Assembly (NCBI GenBank): GCA_965116365.1
Contig: OZ220682.1
Span: 2,008,001-2,072,000 of the forward strand
Direction of reading: 5' to 3'
Source: Dehalococcoidia bacterium
GTDB taxonomy: Bacteria; Chloroflexota; Dehalococcoidia; Lucifugimonadales; Lucifugimonadaceae
Length of the DNA stretch: 64,000 bases
In this document: positions 7,971 through 26,350 of the stretch, in pieces
How positions within the stretch are numbered: position 1 is the first letter of the stretch
How the letters are laid out: each line of letters opens with the position of its first letter
Made by a program: the position numbers and the translations under genes
The notes under the pieces: model-generated
Databases searched by the model: none
Told to the model about the DNA's origin: nothing
The model's input: only the letters and a program-made list of their open reading frames with translations

Positions 7971-10865
7971 ATGACTACTTCGTCGTCCAAGACGAGATCG
8001 AATGGTCGGACCAAGTGGCTCGATCTGCGGGTCAATGGTGTTGCGGTTCAGTGTGCGGATGGCGGGCGGGTTCTGGATGCGGTGAGGGATGCGGGGTTTG
8101 AGGTGCCGACTCTTTGCTATGACGAACGTGTGGGCGCGCAAGGGACTTGTCGGATGTGTTTGGTCGAGGTGGAGGTGAATGGGAGAGTGGAGCAGGTGGC
8201 GTCATGCACCGCCTTTGCGGAGCAAGGGATGGATGTGGCTACGCACACTGACGAGATTCGGTCGTATCGGAAGACGCTGTTGGAGATGCTGCTTTCGGAG
8301 ATGGCGTCGCCGAATAACAATCCGTATTCCAACAAGGTGGGGCCTACTGAGTTTGATCGTGCGGTTGAGGAGTATGAAGCGAAGTGGGACGCGTTACCTC
8401 ACTTGGGGGCTCGCCCAAAGGCGTCGCACGACGAGAATCCATTCATTCAGCGTGACTACGACTACTGCATCGCGTGTTATCGGTGCACGAACATCTGCAA
8501 CGACTGGGAGCAGGCGGCGGCGATCACGGTGGATGGTCGGGGGCAGGATTCGAGCATCTTCACCTTTTTCGGGAATGAGTTGATCGATTCACCGTGCACT
8601 TTCTGTGGTCAGTGCATCAACACCTGCCCTACTGGCGCGTTGACGGATCGGAAGGTTGTTAGTCAGGACATATCGGCAGAGGATATTGACCGGACGCAGT
8701 CGGTATGTCCGTACTGCGGTGTGGGATGCGGTATCGAGATATTGACGCATGACGGCGAGATCATCGGAGCGGAGCCGGACTTCACTGCTGCGAGTCGCGG
8801 CTCGCTTTGTGTGAAGGGTCAGTTCGCGTCTTGGGAGTTCGTGAGGAGCGAAGATCGGTTACGTCATCCGTTGATCAAACAGCCGGACGGGACTTTCCGC
8901 AAGGCGTCGTGGGACGAGGCATTGGATCTGGTTTCGTCGAAGTTCAAGGATGCGATCGCGGAAGAGGGGCCGGATTCTGTTGTTTGTTGGGCATCGGCTC
9001 GCGTGGTTACGGAAGCGAACTACCTGATGCAGAAGTTCGCTCGTGTCGCGATAGGGACGAACAATATCGACAACTGTTCCCGTACTTGACACGCTCCGAC
9101 GGTCGCCGGTCTGGCGGTCATGGTGGGAAGAGGAGCGATGTCGAACTCGATCGAGGAGTTGGCTGGCACCGATTTCCTGCTGGTTACAGGCTCCAACACT
9201 ACAGAGGCGCATCCGGTCATATCGTTGCGGATGAAGCGCGCAGTGAAGAATGGTGCCAAGTTAGTGGTGGTCGATCCGCGCAAAATCGAGCTTACGAATT
9301 GGGCGACGCGACACGTTCAGATCAAGGTCGGGACCGATATCCCGTTCTACAACGCGGTTGCGCACGTGATTATTAATGAGGGGTTGTACGATCCGGAGTT
9401 CGTCGAGCATCGGACTGAAGGTTTCGAGGCATTCGCTCGGCACGTGCAGATGTACACACCAGAGTATTCGGCGGAAATCTGCGGAGTAACTCCAGAGGAG
9501 ATTATCGAGACGGCACGGGAGTTTGCAGCGGCGGCACCGAAGGCTTCGATCTGCTACACGCTAGGCATTACCGAGCACTCTTGCGGCTCGCACAATGTTC
9601 AGTCGCTGGGAAATCTGGGACTGCTGTGCGGGACGTTGGGAGTGCCGAACGCGGGCGTGAATCCGCTTCGTGGTCAGAACAATGTTCAGGGTGCGGGCGA
9701 TGCCGGCTGTATTCCGACCGATCTGCCGGGGTACCAGAAGGTGGAACGTCCGGGAATTCGCGAGCAGTTCGAAGAGGCTTGGGGCGAGCCGCTGCCGAAA
9801 CGTCGGGGTATCACGAAGATCACGGCGATGGAGCAGATGATCAAGGGACGAGTGAAGGCGGTTTACGTGATGGGTGAGAACACGATCGTGTCGGACCCGC
9901 ACGCCAACCACGCCGAACATGCGCTGAGGTCGGTCGATTTCCTCGTGGTTCAGGACATATTTCTGACTGAAACGGCGCAGCTAGCGGACGTGGTTCTGCC
10001 AGCGGGGGCATTTGCGGAGTCGGACGGGACGTTTGCGAATAGCGAGCGACGAGTCCAACGGGTACGCCCTGCTGTTGCGCCGCCGGGCGAGGCGAAGACC
10101 GATGTCGAGATTCTGTTGACGCTGTTCGAGCGGATGGGCAAGCCGCAAGATATGAAGACGGCGACGGATGTTTTCAACGAGATGCGGAGCGTAACGCCGA
10201 TCTATGGTGGGATTTCGCATGAACGGTTGGAACGTGACGGAGGGATTCAGTGGCCATGCGGGGACGAGGACGATCCGGGGACGGAGTATTTGCACGGCGA
10301 CGAGTTTTCTACTGGTTTTCCTGGCTTCTTCGCACCAGTGGACCATATTCCACCAGCTGAGGAACCAGACGAGGAGTATCCCTGGATGCTGACTACGGGG
10401 CGGCGGAGGTCGACATATCACACGGGGACGCAGACGGGGCAGGCGTCGGGCTTCCAACTGTTAGTGCCGCACGAGATGCTGGAGATCAATCCGCGAGACG
10501 CAGAGGAGATGGGGTTGGAGGACGGCGATTTGCTGGATGTTGCGTCTAGGCGTGGGCAGGTAACAGTGGCGGCGCGGTTGACAGAGCGATCTCCCCGAGG
10601 TCTGGTCTTCATGTCGTTCGCATTTCCGGAGTTCACTCGGACAAACGATGTGACTTCAGACGCTTACGACTTCATCACAGAGACTCCGGAGTTCAAGGCA
10701 TGTGCGGTGAAGATATCGAAGTCGTCGCGTCAGGACGAAGAGTTCAGGCAGGCGCAGCGTCGGATACGGCTGGCAGGAGAGGTTAAGCAGCCGACGGAGT
10801 TGATGCCGGGGGTGAATGGGCATCGGAACGGACTAAAGTTGACAGATGTTCCAGATAGGCAGTAA
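7971..10865 (+). CDS. fdhA: Selenocysteine-containing formate dehydrogenase alpha subunit (2Fe-2S + 4Fe-4S + molybdopterin domains), read through the TGA at 9087-9089
   Basis: ORFs 7971-9089 and 9120-10865 are in the same frame. The sequence across the junction reads NNIDNCSRT-TGA-HAPTVAGLAVMVGRGAMSNSIEEL, which is the FdhF-type active-site context with TGA at the Sec position. The N-terminus carries CxxC clusters (CRMC, CIACYRCTNIC, CTFCGQCINTCP, CPYCGVGCG) and the C-terminus has MopB/molybdopterin-binding motifs. Confidence 0.9.
9090..9122 (+). promoter_or_regulatory. Bacterial SECIS hairpin directing Sec insertion at the TGA at 9087-9089
   Basis: GGUCGCC (9101-9107) pairs with GGCGGUC (9113-9119) as 7 bp including 2 G-U, around the loop GGUCU (9108-9112). 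The stem starts 11 nt after the UGA. From memory, E. coli fdhF has UGACACG...GGUUGCAGGUCUGCACC, with the same GGUCU apex. Confidence 0.75.
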
Positions 10866-10874
10866 ACTGATCGC

Positions 10875-11501
10875 ATGAGCGCGAGCAGCGACCTTCGACG
10901 AGACCTTGCGGGCCAAACTTTCGGGACGGTGCTGGCTGATCCGCCATGGCGGTTCCACAACCGTACCGGCAAGGTTGCGCCAGAACACCGCCGACTTTCA
11001 CGCTACGACACCCTGTCTTTCGACGAAATCGCAGCATTGCCGGTAGCAGAACACATGGATGAAACTGCTCACTGCTACCTGTGGGTGCCCAACGCGTTGC
11101 TGCCGTACGGGTTGTCGGTTCTTGAAGCATGGGGATTCACTTACAAGACAAACCTGATCTGGCACAAGATACGCAAGGACGGTGGATCGGACGGCCGCGG
11201 TGTAGGCTTTTACTTCCGTAACGTCACTGAGATGGTCCTGTTCGGCGTTCGTGGCAAAAATGCCCGCACACTCGCGCCAGGGCGTAGCCAGGTGAACTTG
11301 ATGGCATCACGCAAACGCGAGCACTCCCGTAAACCCGACGAACAGTACGACATCATCGAAGCCTGCTCGTGGGGTCCATATTTGGAACTCTTTGGTCGCG
11401 GTCAGCGCGGAGGATGGACTGTGTGGGGCGACCAAGCTACCGCCAGCTACGAGCCTGACTGGCCGACCTACGACTACAACTCTGCGACCGTGGCAGCATG
11501 A
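10875..11501 (+). CDS. MT-A70 family DNA N6-adenine methyltransferase
   Basis: Has the DPPW catalytic motif (VLADPPWRF). The downstream segment YLWVPN...EAWGF.Y....W.K.....G.G.YFRN.TE..LFG.RG, then HSRKPDE, is typical of MT-A70. It starts 9 nt after the fdhA stop, and its TGA overlaps the ATG of the next gene (ATGA at 11498-11501). Confidence 0.85.
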   Translation: MSASSDLRRDLAGQTFGTVLADPPWRFHNRTGKVAPEHRRLSRYDTLSFDEIAALPVAEHMDETAHCYLWVPNALLPYGLSVLEAWGFTYKTNLIWHKIRKDGGSDGRGVGFYFRNVTEMVLFGVRGKNARTLAPGRSQVNLMASRKREHSRKPDEQYDIIEACSWGPYLELFGRGQRGGWTVWGDQATASYEPDWPTYDYNSATVAA

Positions 11502-12232
11502 ACCTGAGCGACTTGGTGTCAGCCGAGTTCAACATCGATACATTGAACCATGCCGAAGCGGTGTTGGAGCGAGATTTCCCGCAACCTATGTCCGAACTCT
11601 GCGACGTCATGCTGAATATTAGTATTTCGGTGGAAGAGCTTGTGCGTGGCGGAGGCGGTGAATCTCCCGTGACTCGACGGATACGAAACGCGTTAAACGA
11701 CCACGGTTGGCCGACGCGTCAAGTAACTATCCGCAGAATCGTCGATGACGAAGAACGGGCATCAACCACGCACAAAATCGACCACGTACGCTCCACCGAT
11801 TCCGGATCGGTAGCTTTGGAGATCGAATGGAACAACAAAGACCCTTTCTATGACCGCGACTTGGAAAACTTCCAGCGGCTCCACCGCGAGGGAGTCATCA
11901 GTGTCGGTGTAATCATTACACGCGGATCATCTCTGCAAACGGCCCTACACCAGATCGTGTTGGACTTCGCTCATAGGTATCAAATCGCGGGATTTGATGA
12001 TCTGACGACTTTCGGCTACTCGCCCACAGCGCGCCAACAACGCGACGTGGAAAGACGACTTGCTGATAGCGATTTTCCCACCGCATGGAGCCGAGCATTC
12101 GTCACCGACAAGTTCGGTGCTTCCACCACGCACTGGGACAAACTCCAAGAACGCGTCCGCCGAGGCGTTGGCAACCCTTGCCCCCTTCTTCTCATAGGAA
12201 TCCCCGCCCAATCAGTACGGCAGAGCCCATGA
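11498..12232 (+). CDS. BglII/BamHI-fold restriction endonuclease-like protein (R1)
   Basis: The N-terminus FNIDTLNHAEAVLERDF resembles the BglII N-terminus (as I recall, DITDYNHADEIL). The catalytic-type segment is IDH-x10-ALEIEWNNKD, i.e. D...ExE as in BamHI. It is translationally coupled to the methyltransferase. Confidence 0.7.
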   Translation: MNLSDLVSAEFNIDTLNHAEAVLERDFPQPMSELCDVMLNISISVEELVRGGGGESPVTRRIRNALNDHGWPTRQVTIRRIVDDEERASTTHKIDHVRSTDSGSVALEIEWNNKDPFYDRDLENFQRLHREGVISVGVIITRGSSLQTALHQIVLDFAHRYQIAGFDDLTTFGYSPTARQQRDVERRLADSDFPTAWSRAFVTDKFGASTTHWDKLQERVRRGVGNPCPLLLIGIPAQSVRQSP

Positions 12233-12311
12233 ATGTCACGCTAGAACATTGCACACCGCGGCTTATGCATGAACCCGATTACCATCCGAGTAAACACAAC
12301 AGTGGCTATTG

Positions 12312-12923
12312 ATGCGCATCGTTGAGATTCATTCGCATCTTAACGGCGTCGAGTTTTTGTCTATTCGACGTCCATGGTTGTGGCGCGAGATCAAAGACGG
12401 GATTGAGGCCTTAGACATATCAGAGTGCGCGGAGACAGCCTTGGGTTCAAACGATCATTTGCTGCAAGGACGATTTTCGCCAACATCCGTAAAACATGCA
12501 CTCAACAATCGGTTCAAAGATTTAGGTTGGGGAAGACGAGCGACCAGGTTTTGGGCAGCTGATGATGCCGAACTAACAAGAACAGTTGCTCGAATGCCAG
12601 TGGAGATTCAGCTGCGAAATATCAAGTTTCAAGGGGCTGAACCGATCTCCACGCTCTTGGAAGTCGATCACTACAAAGACCGCGTAGCGGTTCAGGTCAA
12701 GTTCGATAACTCATCGCTGACAGGTTACGACACCTACTTGACTTACTTGAATTTCTACGGGTCCGGTCTGATAGACGTGGGGATTCAAATCCTGCCGATG
12801 AAAGAACTTGAGACTCAGATGTCGTCGGGTGTGGCCTGTTACGAGCGTGACTTGCTGAACATCATTCGCCAAGGGCGTGGTGTTCCGGCTGTACCGCTTG
12901 TATTGATGGGGATCGCGCCTTAG
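12312..12923 (+). CDS. Second, divergent BglII-fold restriction endonuclease-like protein (R2)
   Basis: IVEIHSHLNGVEFLSIRRPWLWREIKDGI resembles the BglII N-terminus. VDHYKDRVAVQVKFDN aligns with BglII DIDFGKRDTLVEVQFSN, giving D-x8-Q-x-K. The ATG at 12312 was preferred over the TTG at 12309. Three sampled lines give 43-50% GC, about 10 points below R1 and M. Confidence 0.65.
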   Translation: MRIVEIHSHLNGVEFLSIRRPWLWREIKDGIEALDISECAETALGSNDHLLQGRFSPTSVKHALNNRFKDLGWGRRATRFWAADDAELTRTVARMPVEIQLRNIKFQGAEPISTLLEVDHYKDRVAVQVKFDNSSLTGYDTYLTYLNFYGSGLIDVGIQILPMKELETQMSSGVACYERDLLNIIRQGRGVPAVPLVLMGIAP

Positions 12924-13825
12924 ATCGGCGTTTGCCTTGGGTGCATTCTTGATGCCCAGAATGCGGGATCGCCGGCTAGCGGGTGGGTTACGTGTTCGAC
13001 GATGGAGCGGGGTTGGTGGTTGAGTGCGTAGTTGCCTAGGTTGTCTAGAACCCAGCTTGTTGCGGCTCGAGGTCTACGCGAAGCGGATGCGCTTCCTAAG
13101 TCGGATGGCATCTCGCGGTAGTCTATGTTCCGCTCTTGGTACTCGTTTAACGTATTGATCGCCCTACGATCAACGACTTTTTCGCCCGACATATTTATTA
13201 CGGTGGCACCGATTTCGAGAAGGTGCAGCTCACGGTGGGACAACAATGGGTCCGAAGTGGGTCCGTGATGGACGGCGACGAAAACGATGTCGCTTTGAGA
13301 CATGAGCAGATCGAGCGAGGATCGGCGCGCCCCGATGCTCTGGAATGACATTTGTTGAGGTGTCCGAATGTCGTTTACCCAGATCTTCGCCCCTAATTCG
13401 TTCAAGCGTTTGCCGAGTTCGTACCCCAACGATCCGAAACCGATGATTCCGGCGACATTAGGGCTCTTTTGCCGGGTTCTGGATGATTGGCGTGCGATTT
13501 CGCGCCACTGGTCGATTGCCCAGTCGGCGGGATCGTGAACCAACAGTGAAGAGGCGTTGGCCACAGTCAAACCGTCGTCGGTCATGTTTGGTGCGCCGGA
13601 GCCGCAGTCTATGAGTTGCAGGTATCTAACCGAAGCTGGAAGTTTGCCGATTTCATTTTCCTGGGTTTCGCTATCGGTGACAACGACCTCAGCGTCGTCG
13701 ATGTTGTCTGTCAGGTCGTAATTGCCTAGATGAAGATTGCTGGCGGCCCGTAGAGCGTTTTCGAGGGCGGAACGAATTGCCGGACGGCGTGGCAAAGCGA
13801 TGTGGATTTTGTGTCGGTCTTGCAT
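12920..13825 (-). CDS. Divergent D-isomer 2-hydroxyacid dehydrogenase-like NAD-binding protein
   Basis: Rossmann motif VAGIIGFGSLGYELGKRL followed by an acidic residue in WVNDIR. The later segment DIVFVAVHHGP...LL is typical of the family. Its stop overlaps the R2 stop by 4 nt (the genes are convergent). Confidence 0.55.
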   Translation of the reverse strand: MQDRHKIHIALPRRPAIRSALENALRAASNLHLGNYDLTDNIDDAEVVVTDSETQENEIGKLPASVRYLQLIDCGSGAPNMTDDGLTVANASSLLVHDPADWAIDQWREIARQSSRTRQKSPNVAGIIGFGSLGYELGKRLNELGAKIWVNDIRTPQQMSFQSIGARRSSLDLLMSQSDIVFVAVHHGPTSDPLLSHRELHLLEIGATVINMSGEKVVDRRAINTLNEYQERNIDYREMPSDLGSASASRRPRAATSWVLDNLGNYALNHQPRSIVEHVTHPLAGDPAFWASRMHPRQTPI

Positions 13826-26273: not shown

Positions 26274-26350
26274 GGGCCTGTAGCTCAGTTCGGCAGAGCA
26301 GCGGACTTTTAATCCGAAGGTCGTGGGTTCGAATCCCACCGGGCCCACCA
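26274..26350 (+). tRNA. tRNA-Lys (anticodon UUU), CCA encoded
   Basis: Manual cloverleaf: acceptor GGGCCUG/CGGGCCC, D arm GCUC-AGUUCGGCA-GAGC, anticodon arm GCGGA-CUUUUAA-UCCGA (one G-A mismatch at the top pair), variable loop AGGUC, T arm GUGGG-UUCGAAU-CCCAC, discriminator A, then CCA. Confidence 0.9.

Follow-up and report, generated by a model that had tools for sequence, protein, structure and literature searches.

A probable Nph3I-type restriction-modification pair beside a probably nuclease-dead BstYI relative in a Dehalococcoidia genome

Two described restriction-modification (R-M) systems are closest to the genes considered here. The Nph3I system of Nitratiruptor phage NrS-3 consists of a methylase, M.Nph3I (NrS3_07), and a nuclease encoded beside it, R.Nph3I (NrS3_08). 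M.Nph3I produces RG(6mA)TCY in cell-free assays, where 6mA is N6-methyladenine, R.Nph3I alone cuts each of the four RGATCY sequences unless 6mA is present, which blocks it completely, and the RGATCY motif is ~100% methylated in the host and phage genomes (PMC10734518). The other is BstYI from Geobacillus stearothermophilus, whose partner is an N4-cytosine methylase; the N6_N4_Mtase family is the type of M.BamHI, M.BglII and probably M.BstYI (PMC2890505). Here we analysed a 64,000-nucleotide (nt) stretch of the genome of a Dehalococcoidia bacterium (assembly GCA_965116365.1, contig OZ220682.1, positions 2,008,001 to 2,072,000; hereafter the window), in which a relative of each nuclease lies downstream of a single methylase gene. 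The three genes, all in the same orientation, are as follows.

10875-11501, + strand: M, an MT-A70-family N6-adenine DNA methyltransferase of 208 amino acids (aa) with an ADPPW motif
11498-12232, + strand: R1, a BglII/BstYI-fold endonuclease of predicted type IIP, 244 aa, overlapping M by ATGA
12312-12923, + strand: R2, a BstYI-family protein of 203 aa from its ATG, starting 79 nt past R1

The first-pass annotation of this DNA placed the start of M 9 nt after fdhA (stop at 10865), and noted the ATGA overlap between M and R1 and the 79-nt gap between R1 and R2, all of which we confirmed from the sequence. The listed open reading frame (ORF) of R2 begins at TTG 12309; ATG 12312 is the real start, and the length of 203 aa is common to essentially all homologues. 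In our assessment, the probable explanation of the locus is that M and R1 form an Nph3I-type system lying beside an orphaned, probably nuclease-dead relic of a BstYI-type system.

The methylase M and its partner nuclease R1

M matched Pfam MT-A70 over the whole profile (PF05063, positions 1-172 of 172; 1.2e-27), in agreement with its earlier assignment as a DPPW methyltransferase of this family, as well as PADLOC MTase_II (PDLC03221; 1.2e-86). Over its full length it is identical to M.Nph3I at 141/208 positions (68%; E 4e-113). R1 matched Pfam Endonuc-BglII (1.1e-29) and is 31% identical to R.Nph3I (E 7e-37), with which it has a D...ALEIEWNNKDPF core in common. The active-site motif of R1, IDH...ALEIEW (D95...E108-x-E110), is intact, and D95, E108, E110 and the EWNNKDPF block were invariant in 28 sampled relatives; >7800 relatives of R1 are present in the database. 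A sequence search of the PDB with R1 gave no match, and the fold search with its AlphaFold2 (AF2) model (pLDDT 89) returned BstYI as the sole significant PDB neighbour. NCBIfam profiles gave no match for M, R1 or R2.

R1 loci were scanned with one genome per species, which yielded 80 loci from Chloroflexota, Proteobacteria, Actinobacteria, Planctomycetota, Nitrospirae and other phyla. An MT-A70 gene lies directly beside R1 in 76 of them, in the order M-R or R-M or convergently, and R2 is also present in two, both from the nearest Dehalococcoidia relatives. M and R1 occur without R2 in 74/80 loci, and a further four have neither M nor R2. These four (L052, L057, L063 and L069, from Nitrospirillum spp.) are the only loci without an MT-A70 gene within 5 kb, and their R1 stop-to-stop frames are much longer than 244 aa, which may mean a fusion or another partner methylase.

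On the basis of the homology to M.Nph3I and R.Nph3I, the pairing across phyla and the BstYI neighbour of the R1 model, M and R1 are predicted to be a complete, self-sufficient two-gene type IIP R-M system of the Nph3I kind, with R1 as the predicted cognate nuclease of M, translationally coupled to it via the ATGA. M would most likely convert RGATCY into RG(6mA)TCY, and R1 would most likely cut unmethylated RGATCY as a homodimer and be blocked by 6mA. No decisive avoidance of candidate sites was apparent in the 64-kb window, with 48 RGATCY sites against ~60 expected, 10 AGATCT sites against 18.8 expected and a GATC ratio of 0.80. The first-pass annotation knew of no characterised arrangement of an MT-A70 methylase with two BglII-fold nucleases; Nph3I is a characterised system of an MT-A70 methylase with one such nuclease (PMC10734518).

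The same annotation suggested that R1 and R2 might assemble into a heterodimer for an asymmetric site, as in BbvCI, or into a nicking enzyme in which R2 is the impaired subunit. The two genes are adjacent, co-oriented and 79 nt apart, and their products have one fold with different catalytic signatures, D...ExE in R1 and D-x8-Q-x-K in R2, as originally described. In addition, a scan of the region for promoters and terminators, in which the counts were not above those of shuffled sequences, revealed no terminator that stands out between R1 and R2. However, both forms of the suggestion are contradicted by the 74/80 loci in which M-R1 occurs without R2 and by the biochemistry of R.Nph3I, which cuts the palindromic RGATCY alone (PMC10734518). 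Moreover, R1 and R2 share just 22% identity and fall into separate subfamilies, and the single methylase is of a palindrome-methylating family. We consider such a heterodimer highly improbable, and the genomic distribution described below bears on it further.

R2, its active site and its missing methylase

R2 matched Pfam Endonuc-BglII (3.8e-22) and PADLOC REase_II (6e-51), and aligned colinearly with BstYI (PDB 1sdo) over residues 1-203 at 41% identity (phmmer E 3e-49). Its AF2 model matched BstYI with Foldseek template modelling (TM) scores of 0.83-0.87, and the profile and fold checks on both proteins bear out their first-pass assignment to the BglII fold. The R2 segment VDHYKDRVAVQVKF, read as D-x8-Q-x-K, provides D119, Q128 and K130 at the positions of D119, E128 and Q130 of BstYI. 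The D119/E128/Q130 triad is present in BstYI and in 158/158 canonical relatives examined, and is absent from R2.

A search of a 5.8-billion-protein collection placed R2 in a clade of 17 protein clusters, and all of the clade contexts that could be inspected are from Dehalococcoidia. Positions 119/128/130 read DQQ in 10 clusters, DQK in 2, NQQ in 2, DHQ in 2 and DEE in 1, the two members with N119 and Q128 having lost Asp119 as well. Relative to 103 canonical proteins, the R2 clade has altered about 25 of the positions at which conservation is ≥95%, including K42, S44, E46, N61, Y115, N116, T118, E128, G132, K133, Y134, F136, F142-H145 and E159. K133, which in BstYI contacts the outer purine of the recognition site, is replaced by N in R2. 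The clade keeps D119 (in most members), K122, R124, D155 and the C-terminal third, which is almost invariant, and R2 itself retains D119, K122, R124 and D155 together with the MSSG loop and the RQGRGVPAVPL C-terminus of BstYI. The mean identity to 151 canonical proteins is 46-51% for the R2 clade and 69% for the canonical genes that occupy this locus in sister genomes, indicating a burst of divergence in the R2 clade. A metagenome scan with the R2 alignment recovered canonical BstYI-like loci only, with no further non-canonical members. Since the catalytic positions vary inside the clade, including the two N119/Q128 members, and never outside it, R2 has most likely lost cleavage activity and is probably nuclease-dead.

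A gene in this condition could be a dying, functionless pseudogene whose ORF is still undisrupted. The loss of the catalytic glutamate and of the cognate methylase (see below), the accelerated divergence from the canonical family, the absence of R2 from one related locus (L008) and its GC content below that of the neighbouring genes would all fit this possibility. The whole-gene GC contents are 58.4% for M, 54.6% for R1 and 50.0% for R2, with 56.0% for the window; the decrease reported in the first-pass annotation is thus real in direction but shallower than its sampled lines (67%, 58% and 43-50%) had implied. Against a pseudogene, the ratio of nonsynonymous to synonymous substitution rates (dN/dS) in the R2 clade is 0.15-0.29 with a median of 0.22 (15 pairs, dS up to ~1.5), the 203-codon ORFs remain intact where dS is >1, at least 13 clusters having an uninterrupted ORF of exactly this length, and the C-terminal third hardly varies. 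The median dN/dS of canonical BstYI-like genes is 0.05 (21 pairs), a difference with a Mann-Whitney p of 5e-7 from pairs that are not independent. R2 is under purifying selection, approximately 4-fold relaxed compared with the working enzymes of its family. The low dN/dS and the intact ORFs therefore argue that R2 is not a neutral pseudogene, a reading that we rejected on the dN/dS values and regard as very unlikely.

The canonical loci from the metagenome scan were reused as a control set of 80 BstYI-like loci. An SPPY methylase of ~300 aa lies immediately upstream of the nuclease on the same strand in at least 63 of them, and neither MT-A70 nor R1 adjoins the nuclease in any (0/80); the sole MT-A70-like match is a weak 31-bit fragment ~900 nt upstream in one locus (L112). 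In two related Dehalococcoidia loci, L166 and L170, an N6_N4_Mtase gene and a canonical D-E-Q nuclease gene lie between fdhA and a 2-Hacid_dh gene, the site that M, R1 and R2 occupy in the window. Among the nucleases of these two loci (P0143, P0136) is the closest canonical relative of R2, and P0136 was the top canonical match in both R2 searches. No N4-type methylase was detected anywhere in the 64-kb window, and the R1-R2 spacer contains the following feature.

12256-12311, + strand: vestige of the 3' end of an N4-cytosine-type methyltransferase gene (N6_N4_Mtase, SPPY), abutting the R2 start codon

The final part of the spacer can be aligned to the terminal 33-40 nt (17 codons) of the N4 methylase genes of L166 and L170, and the alignments always end exactly at the R2 ATG and keep the TGATG stop/start overlap. 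For the window spacer itself, the comparison with L170 gave a z-score of 4.2, with a score merely equal to the best of 300 shuffles, and that with the 3' end of the L166 methylase gene gave no match. The homologous spacers of L171, L173 and L007 gave z-scores of 2.1-11.8 depending on the pair, and the strongest were those for L171 and for L173 against L170. At the protein level, the window spacer reads R.M..P.Y.P.K.N.G. against the methylase C-terminus RPMGKPVYDPGKRNGGH. Taken together, these observations indicate that the gene for the N4-cytosine methylase that belonged to R2 was lost by deletion, leaving no more than its 3' end in the R1-R2 spacer.

Turnover at the site between fdhA and 2-Hacid_dh

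The site between fdhA and 2-Hacid_dh occurs in four states. It holds the N4 methylase and the canonical nuclease in L166 and L170; R2 in its glutamine form, R2(Q), without M-R1 and with unrelated small genes in L173; M-R1-R2(Q) in the window, L001-L007, L167-L172 and L174; and M-R1 alone in L008. The small genes of L173 (4883-7231) include an HI1420-type antitoxin-like gene and a phage T4 endonuclease IV-like gene. The FdhA proteins of L171, L008 and L170 are mutually 98% identical and yet are followed by three different cassettes, indicating recombinational exchange among close strains. The site behaves as a small variable defence islet, and variable defence islands have been described (PMC12707154). 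No remnants of M, R1 or R2 were found in the L008 spacer or among the small ORFs of L170.

On the 2.67-Mb contig that carries L173 (ctg717480c), R2(Q) occupies the fdhA site and is separated by 725 kb from M-R1, which has a different genomic context; R2 is therefore independent of M-R1. On the 2.60-Mb contig that carries L166, the two systems are both complete and lie at different positions, and M-R1 is frequent throughout this genome group with or without R2. The separation of R2(Q) from R1 and the presence of M-R1 without R2 in L008, whose FdhA is 98% identical to that of L171, also argue against an R1-R2 heterodimer; we rejected it, as the distributions of R1 and R2 do not match obligate co-occurrence.

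We propose that a BstYI-type system, comprising an SPPY N4-cytosine methylase that makes N4-methylcytosine (4mC) and a nuclease, was the older resident of the fdhA/2-Hacid_dh site. M-R1, an Nph3I-type system that makes 6mA, would move between genomes as a two-gene cassette and would have met the resident system here, both plausibly targeting RGATCY. The first-pass idea of a later, independent acquisition of R2 would then be right about the separate origin and reversed in its direction. The BstYI-type nuclease would have lost the catalytic Glu128 and the Lys133 that contacts a base, and in some clade members Asp119 too. Because Lys133 and the metal-binding Glu128 are gone, R2 is most likely no longer a restriction nuclease, and a nuclease that does not cleave could have allowed its methylase to be lost, although the loss of the glutamate may have come before or after that of the methylase. 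M-R1 would now sit where the N4-cytosine methylase of R2 used to be. R2 is proposed to be co-transcribed with M-R1 and maintained under relaxed purifying selection, from which we suggest that it probably serves a function other than cleavage, perhaps that of binding DNA.

Several points weigh against this account. The RGATCY specificity of M-R1 is extrapolated from 68% and 31% identity to characterised enzymes, and R1 has an insertion of ~50 residues relative to R.Nph3I. The inactivity of R2 is deduced from sequence alone, purifying selection means that R2 does something, and every genome with R2(Q) also carries M, as a dependence on 6mA protection would predict. HinP1I is an active nuclease with a D...QxK motif. 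Relocated catalytic glutamates are known from the active enzymes Cfr10I and EcoO109I (PMC3424549), and R2 in the window, with E117-x-D119...Q128-x-K130, resembles the EcoO109I-type EPD...xxK. Another clade member, P0129 (L007, 5815-6423), carries K117/E128/E130 in place of the E117/Q128/Q130 of its close relatives, and this exchange of charges near the active site looks compensatory.

Such features could mean that one methylase serves two nucleases. R2 would in that case be an active, 6mA-sensitive GATC-type endonuclease with a rewired site, using Gln128 with Glu117 or Lys130, and the MT-A70 methylase would protect the genome from R1 and R2 alike, making the N4 methylase dispensable. The intact, selected R2 ORFs, the compensatory-looking swap in P0129 and the migration of the glutamate within the superfamily fit this arrangement, as do the usual position of M immediately upstream of R2(Q), the mini-ORF between R1 and R2 (see below), which suggests coupled expression, and the RGATCY target that both parent systems plausibly share. 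Nevertheless, we judge it unlikely. Two clade members with N119 and Q128 have lost both carboxylates and others have H128, all at positions that are invariant in the 158 canonical proteins; E117 is replaced by A or G in the P0132-P0134 subclade, and K130 occurs in 2 clusters only. K133 and ~25 other canonical conserved positions are lost, the constraint is ~4-fold relaxed, and BstYI itself is not blocked by 6mA. The co-occurrence with M is weak evidence, since M-R1 is common in this genome group regardless of R2. A wider possibility is that the R2 clade represents a restriction endonuclease that was domesticated once its methylase had gone, having become either a dead, sequence-specific DNA binder that works with or regulates M-R1 or a rewired, 6mA-sensitive second nuclease, in which case one MT-A70 methylase would cover two unrelated isoschizomers (a 1M:2R system); we regard this as conceivable although doubtful.

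Two further features of the locus bear on its expression.

12229-12312, + strand: mini-ORF of 27 codons, read from the sequence, overlapping R1 at its stop (ATGA) and R2 at its start (TGATG)
10839-10868, + strand: candidate promoter-like site TTGACA-18-TAAACT preceding M, within the 3' end of fdhA, with 10/12 matches

The mini-ORF frame is likewise open in L171, L007 and L004. It could relay translational coupling from R1 to R2, and alternatively may be a leftover frame of the deleted methylase. The region has no other candidate than this promoter-like site, which does not stand out statistically (1 site against 1.4 +/- 1.2 in shuffles); the R1-R2 spacer contained no promoter-like site in the same scan.

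Of the flanking genes, fdhA (7971-10865) consists of two ORFs, 7971-9089 and 9120-10865, that share a frame and are joined by an in-frame TGA at 9087-9089. The context of this TGA, NCSRT-U-HAPTV, is the usual selenocysteine/cysteine position of formate dehydrogenases, and fdhA seems to be one selenoprotein gene, which gene callers split identically in all related contigs. The 2-Hacid_dh gene (12920-13825, - strand) converges on R2 with a 4-nt overlap at the R2 end, and is unusually divergent between genomes, with 54-87% identity where FdhA has 90-95%. Elsewhere in the window, GCATGC is the most depleted of the GC-containing 6-bp palindromes (4 observed against 14.3 expected under a Markov model), which could reflect a further restriction system in the host, and tRNA-Lys(TTT) at 26274-26350 is the only RNA gene found.

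Comparison with known systems

The predicted M-R1 system resembles Nph3I in having an MT-A70-type methylase adjoining a Pfam Endonuc-BglII nuclease in a two-gene cassette. The two differ in the length of the nuclease (244 aa for R1 and 195 aa for R.Nph3I), with the R1 insertion at approximately residues 150-200, and in the hairpin before the ExE, which is 4 residues longer in R1. The gene order is M then R1 in the window and R then M in the phage, and the phage system has no third gene, whereas R2 stands beside M-R1 in the window. The predicted RGATCY specificity with 6mA is testable and is assigned here to a so far uncharacterised nuclease family with >7800 relatives.

Compared with BstYI (PDB 1sdo, 1vrr), R2 has Q128 in place of E, K130 in place of Q and N133 in place of K, and in place of an N4-cytosine methylase partner it has no SPPY methylase, but only a vestige of ~40 nt. 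R1 and R2 recall the type IIT enzymes BbvCI and Bpu10I in being non-identical, subunit-sized proteins of one fold encoded by two adjacent genes. However, the subunit genes of BbvCI and Bpu10I obligately co-occur and serve asymmetric sites with two methylases (or one fused), whereas R1 and R2 differ in history and distribution and have a single methylase beside them; the attractive heterodimeric or nicking reading of the locus is corrected accordingly.

Competition between R-M systems for one recognition sequence was reportedly described by Kusano et al. in 1995. The locus is similar to such cases in that a 6mA system and a 4mC system, plausibly both specific for RGATCY, have met at one hot spot where one complete system is left, and differs from them in that the nuclease gene of the loser has persisted, altered and under selection. 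To our knowledge, orphan methylases are common and conserved orphan restriction nucleases are not. R2 would thus be a rare orphaned restriction-nuclease gene that has lost its catalytic glutamate and is still under selection, and R2-like proteins could be restriction nucleases domesticated into sequence-specific DNA binders. The spacer vestige is a molecular fossil that would document how one R-M system displaced the methylase of another, probably with the same recognition sequence. In summary, M and R1 belong to a known kind, and the conserved orphan nuclease without its glutamate, together with the methylase fossil, is an unusual instance of R-M decay and turnover rather than a new class of system.

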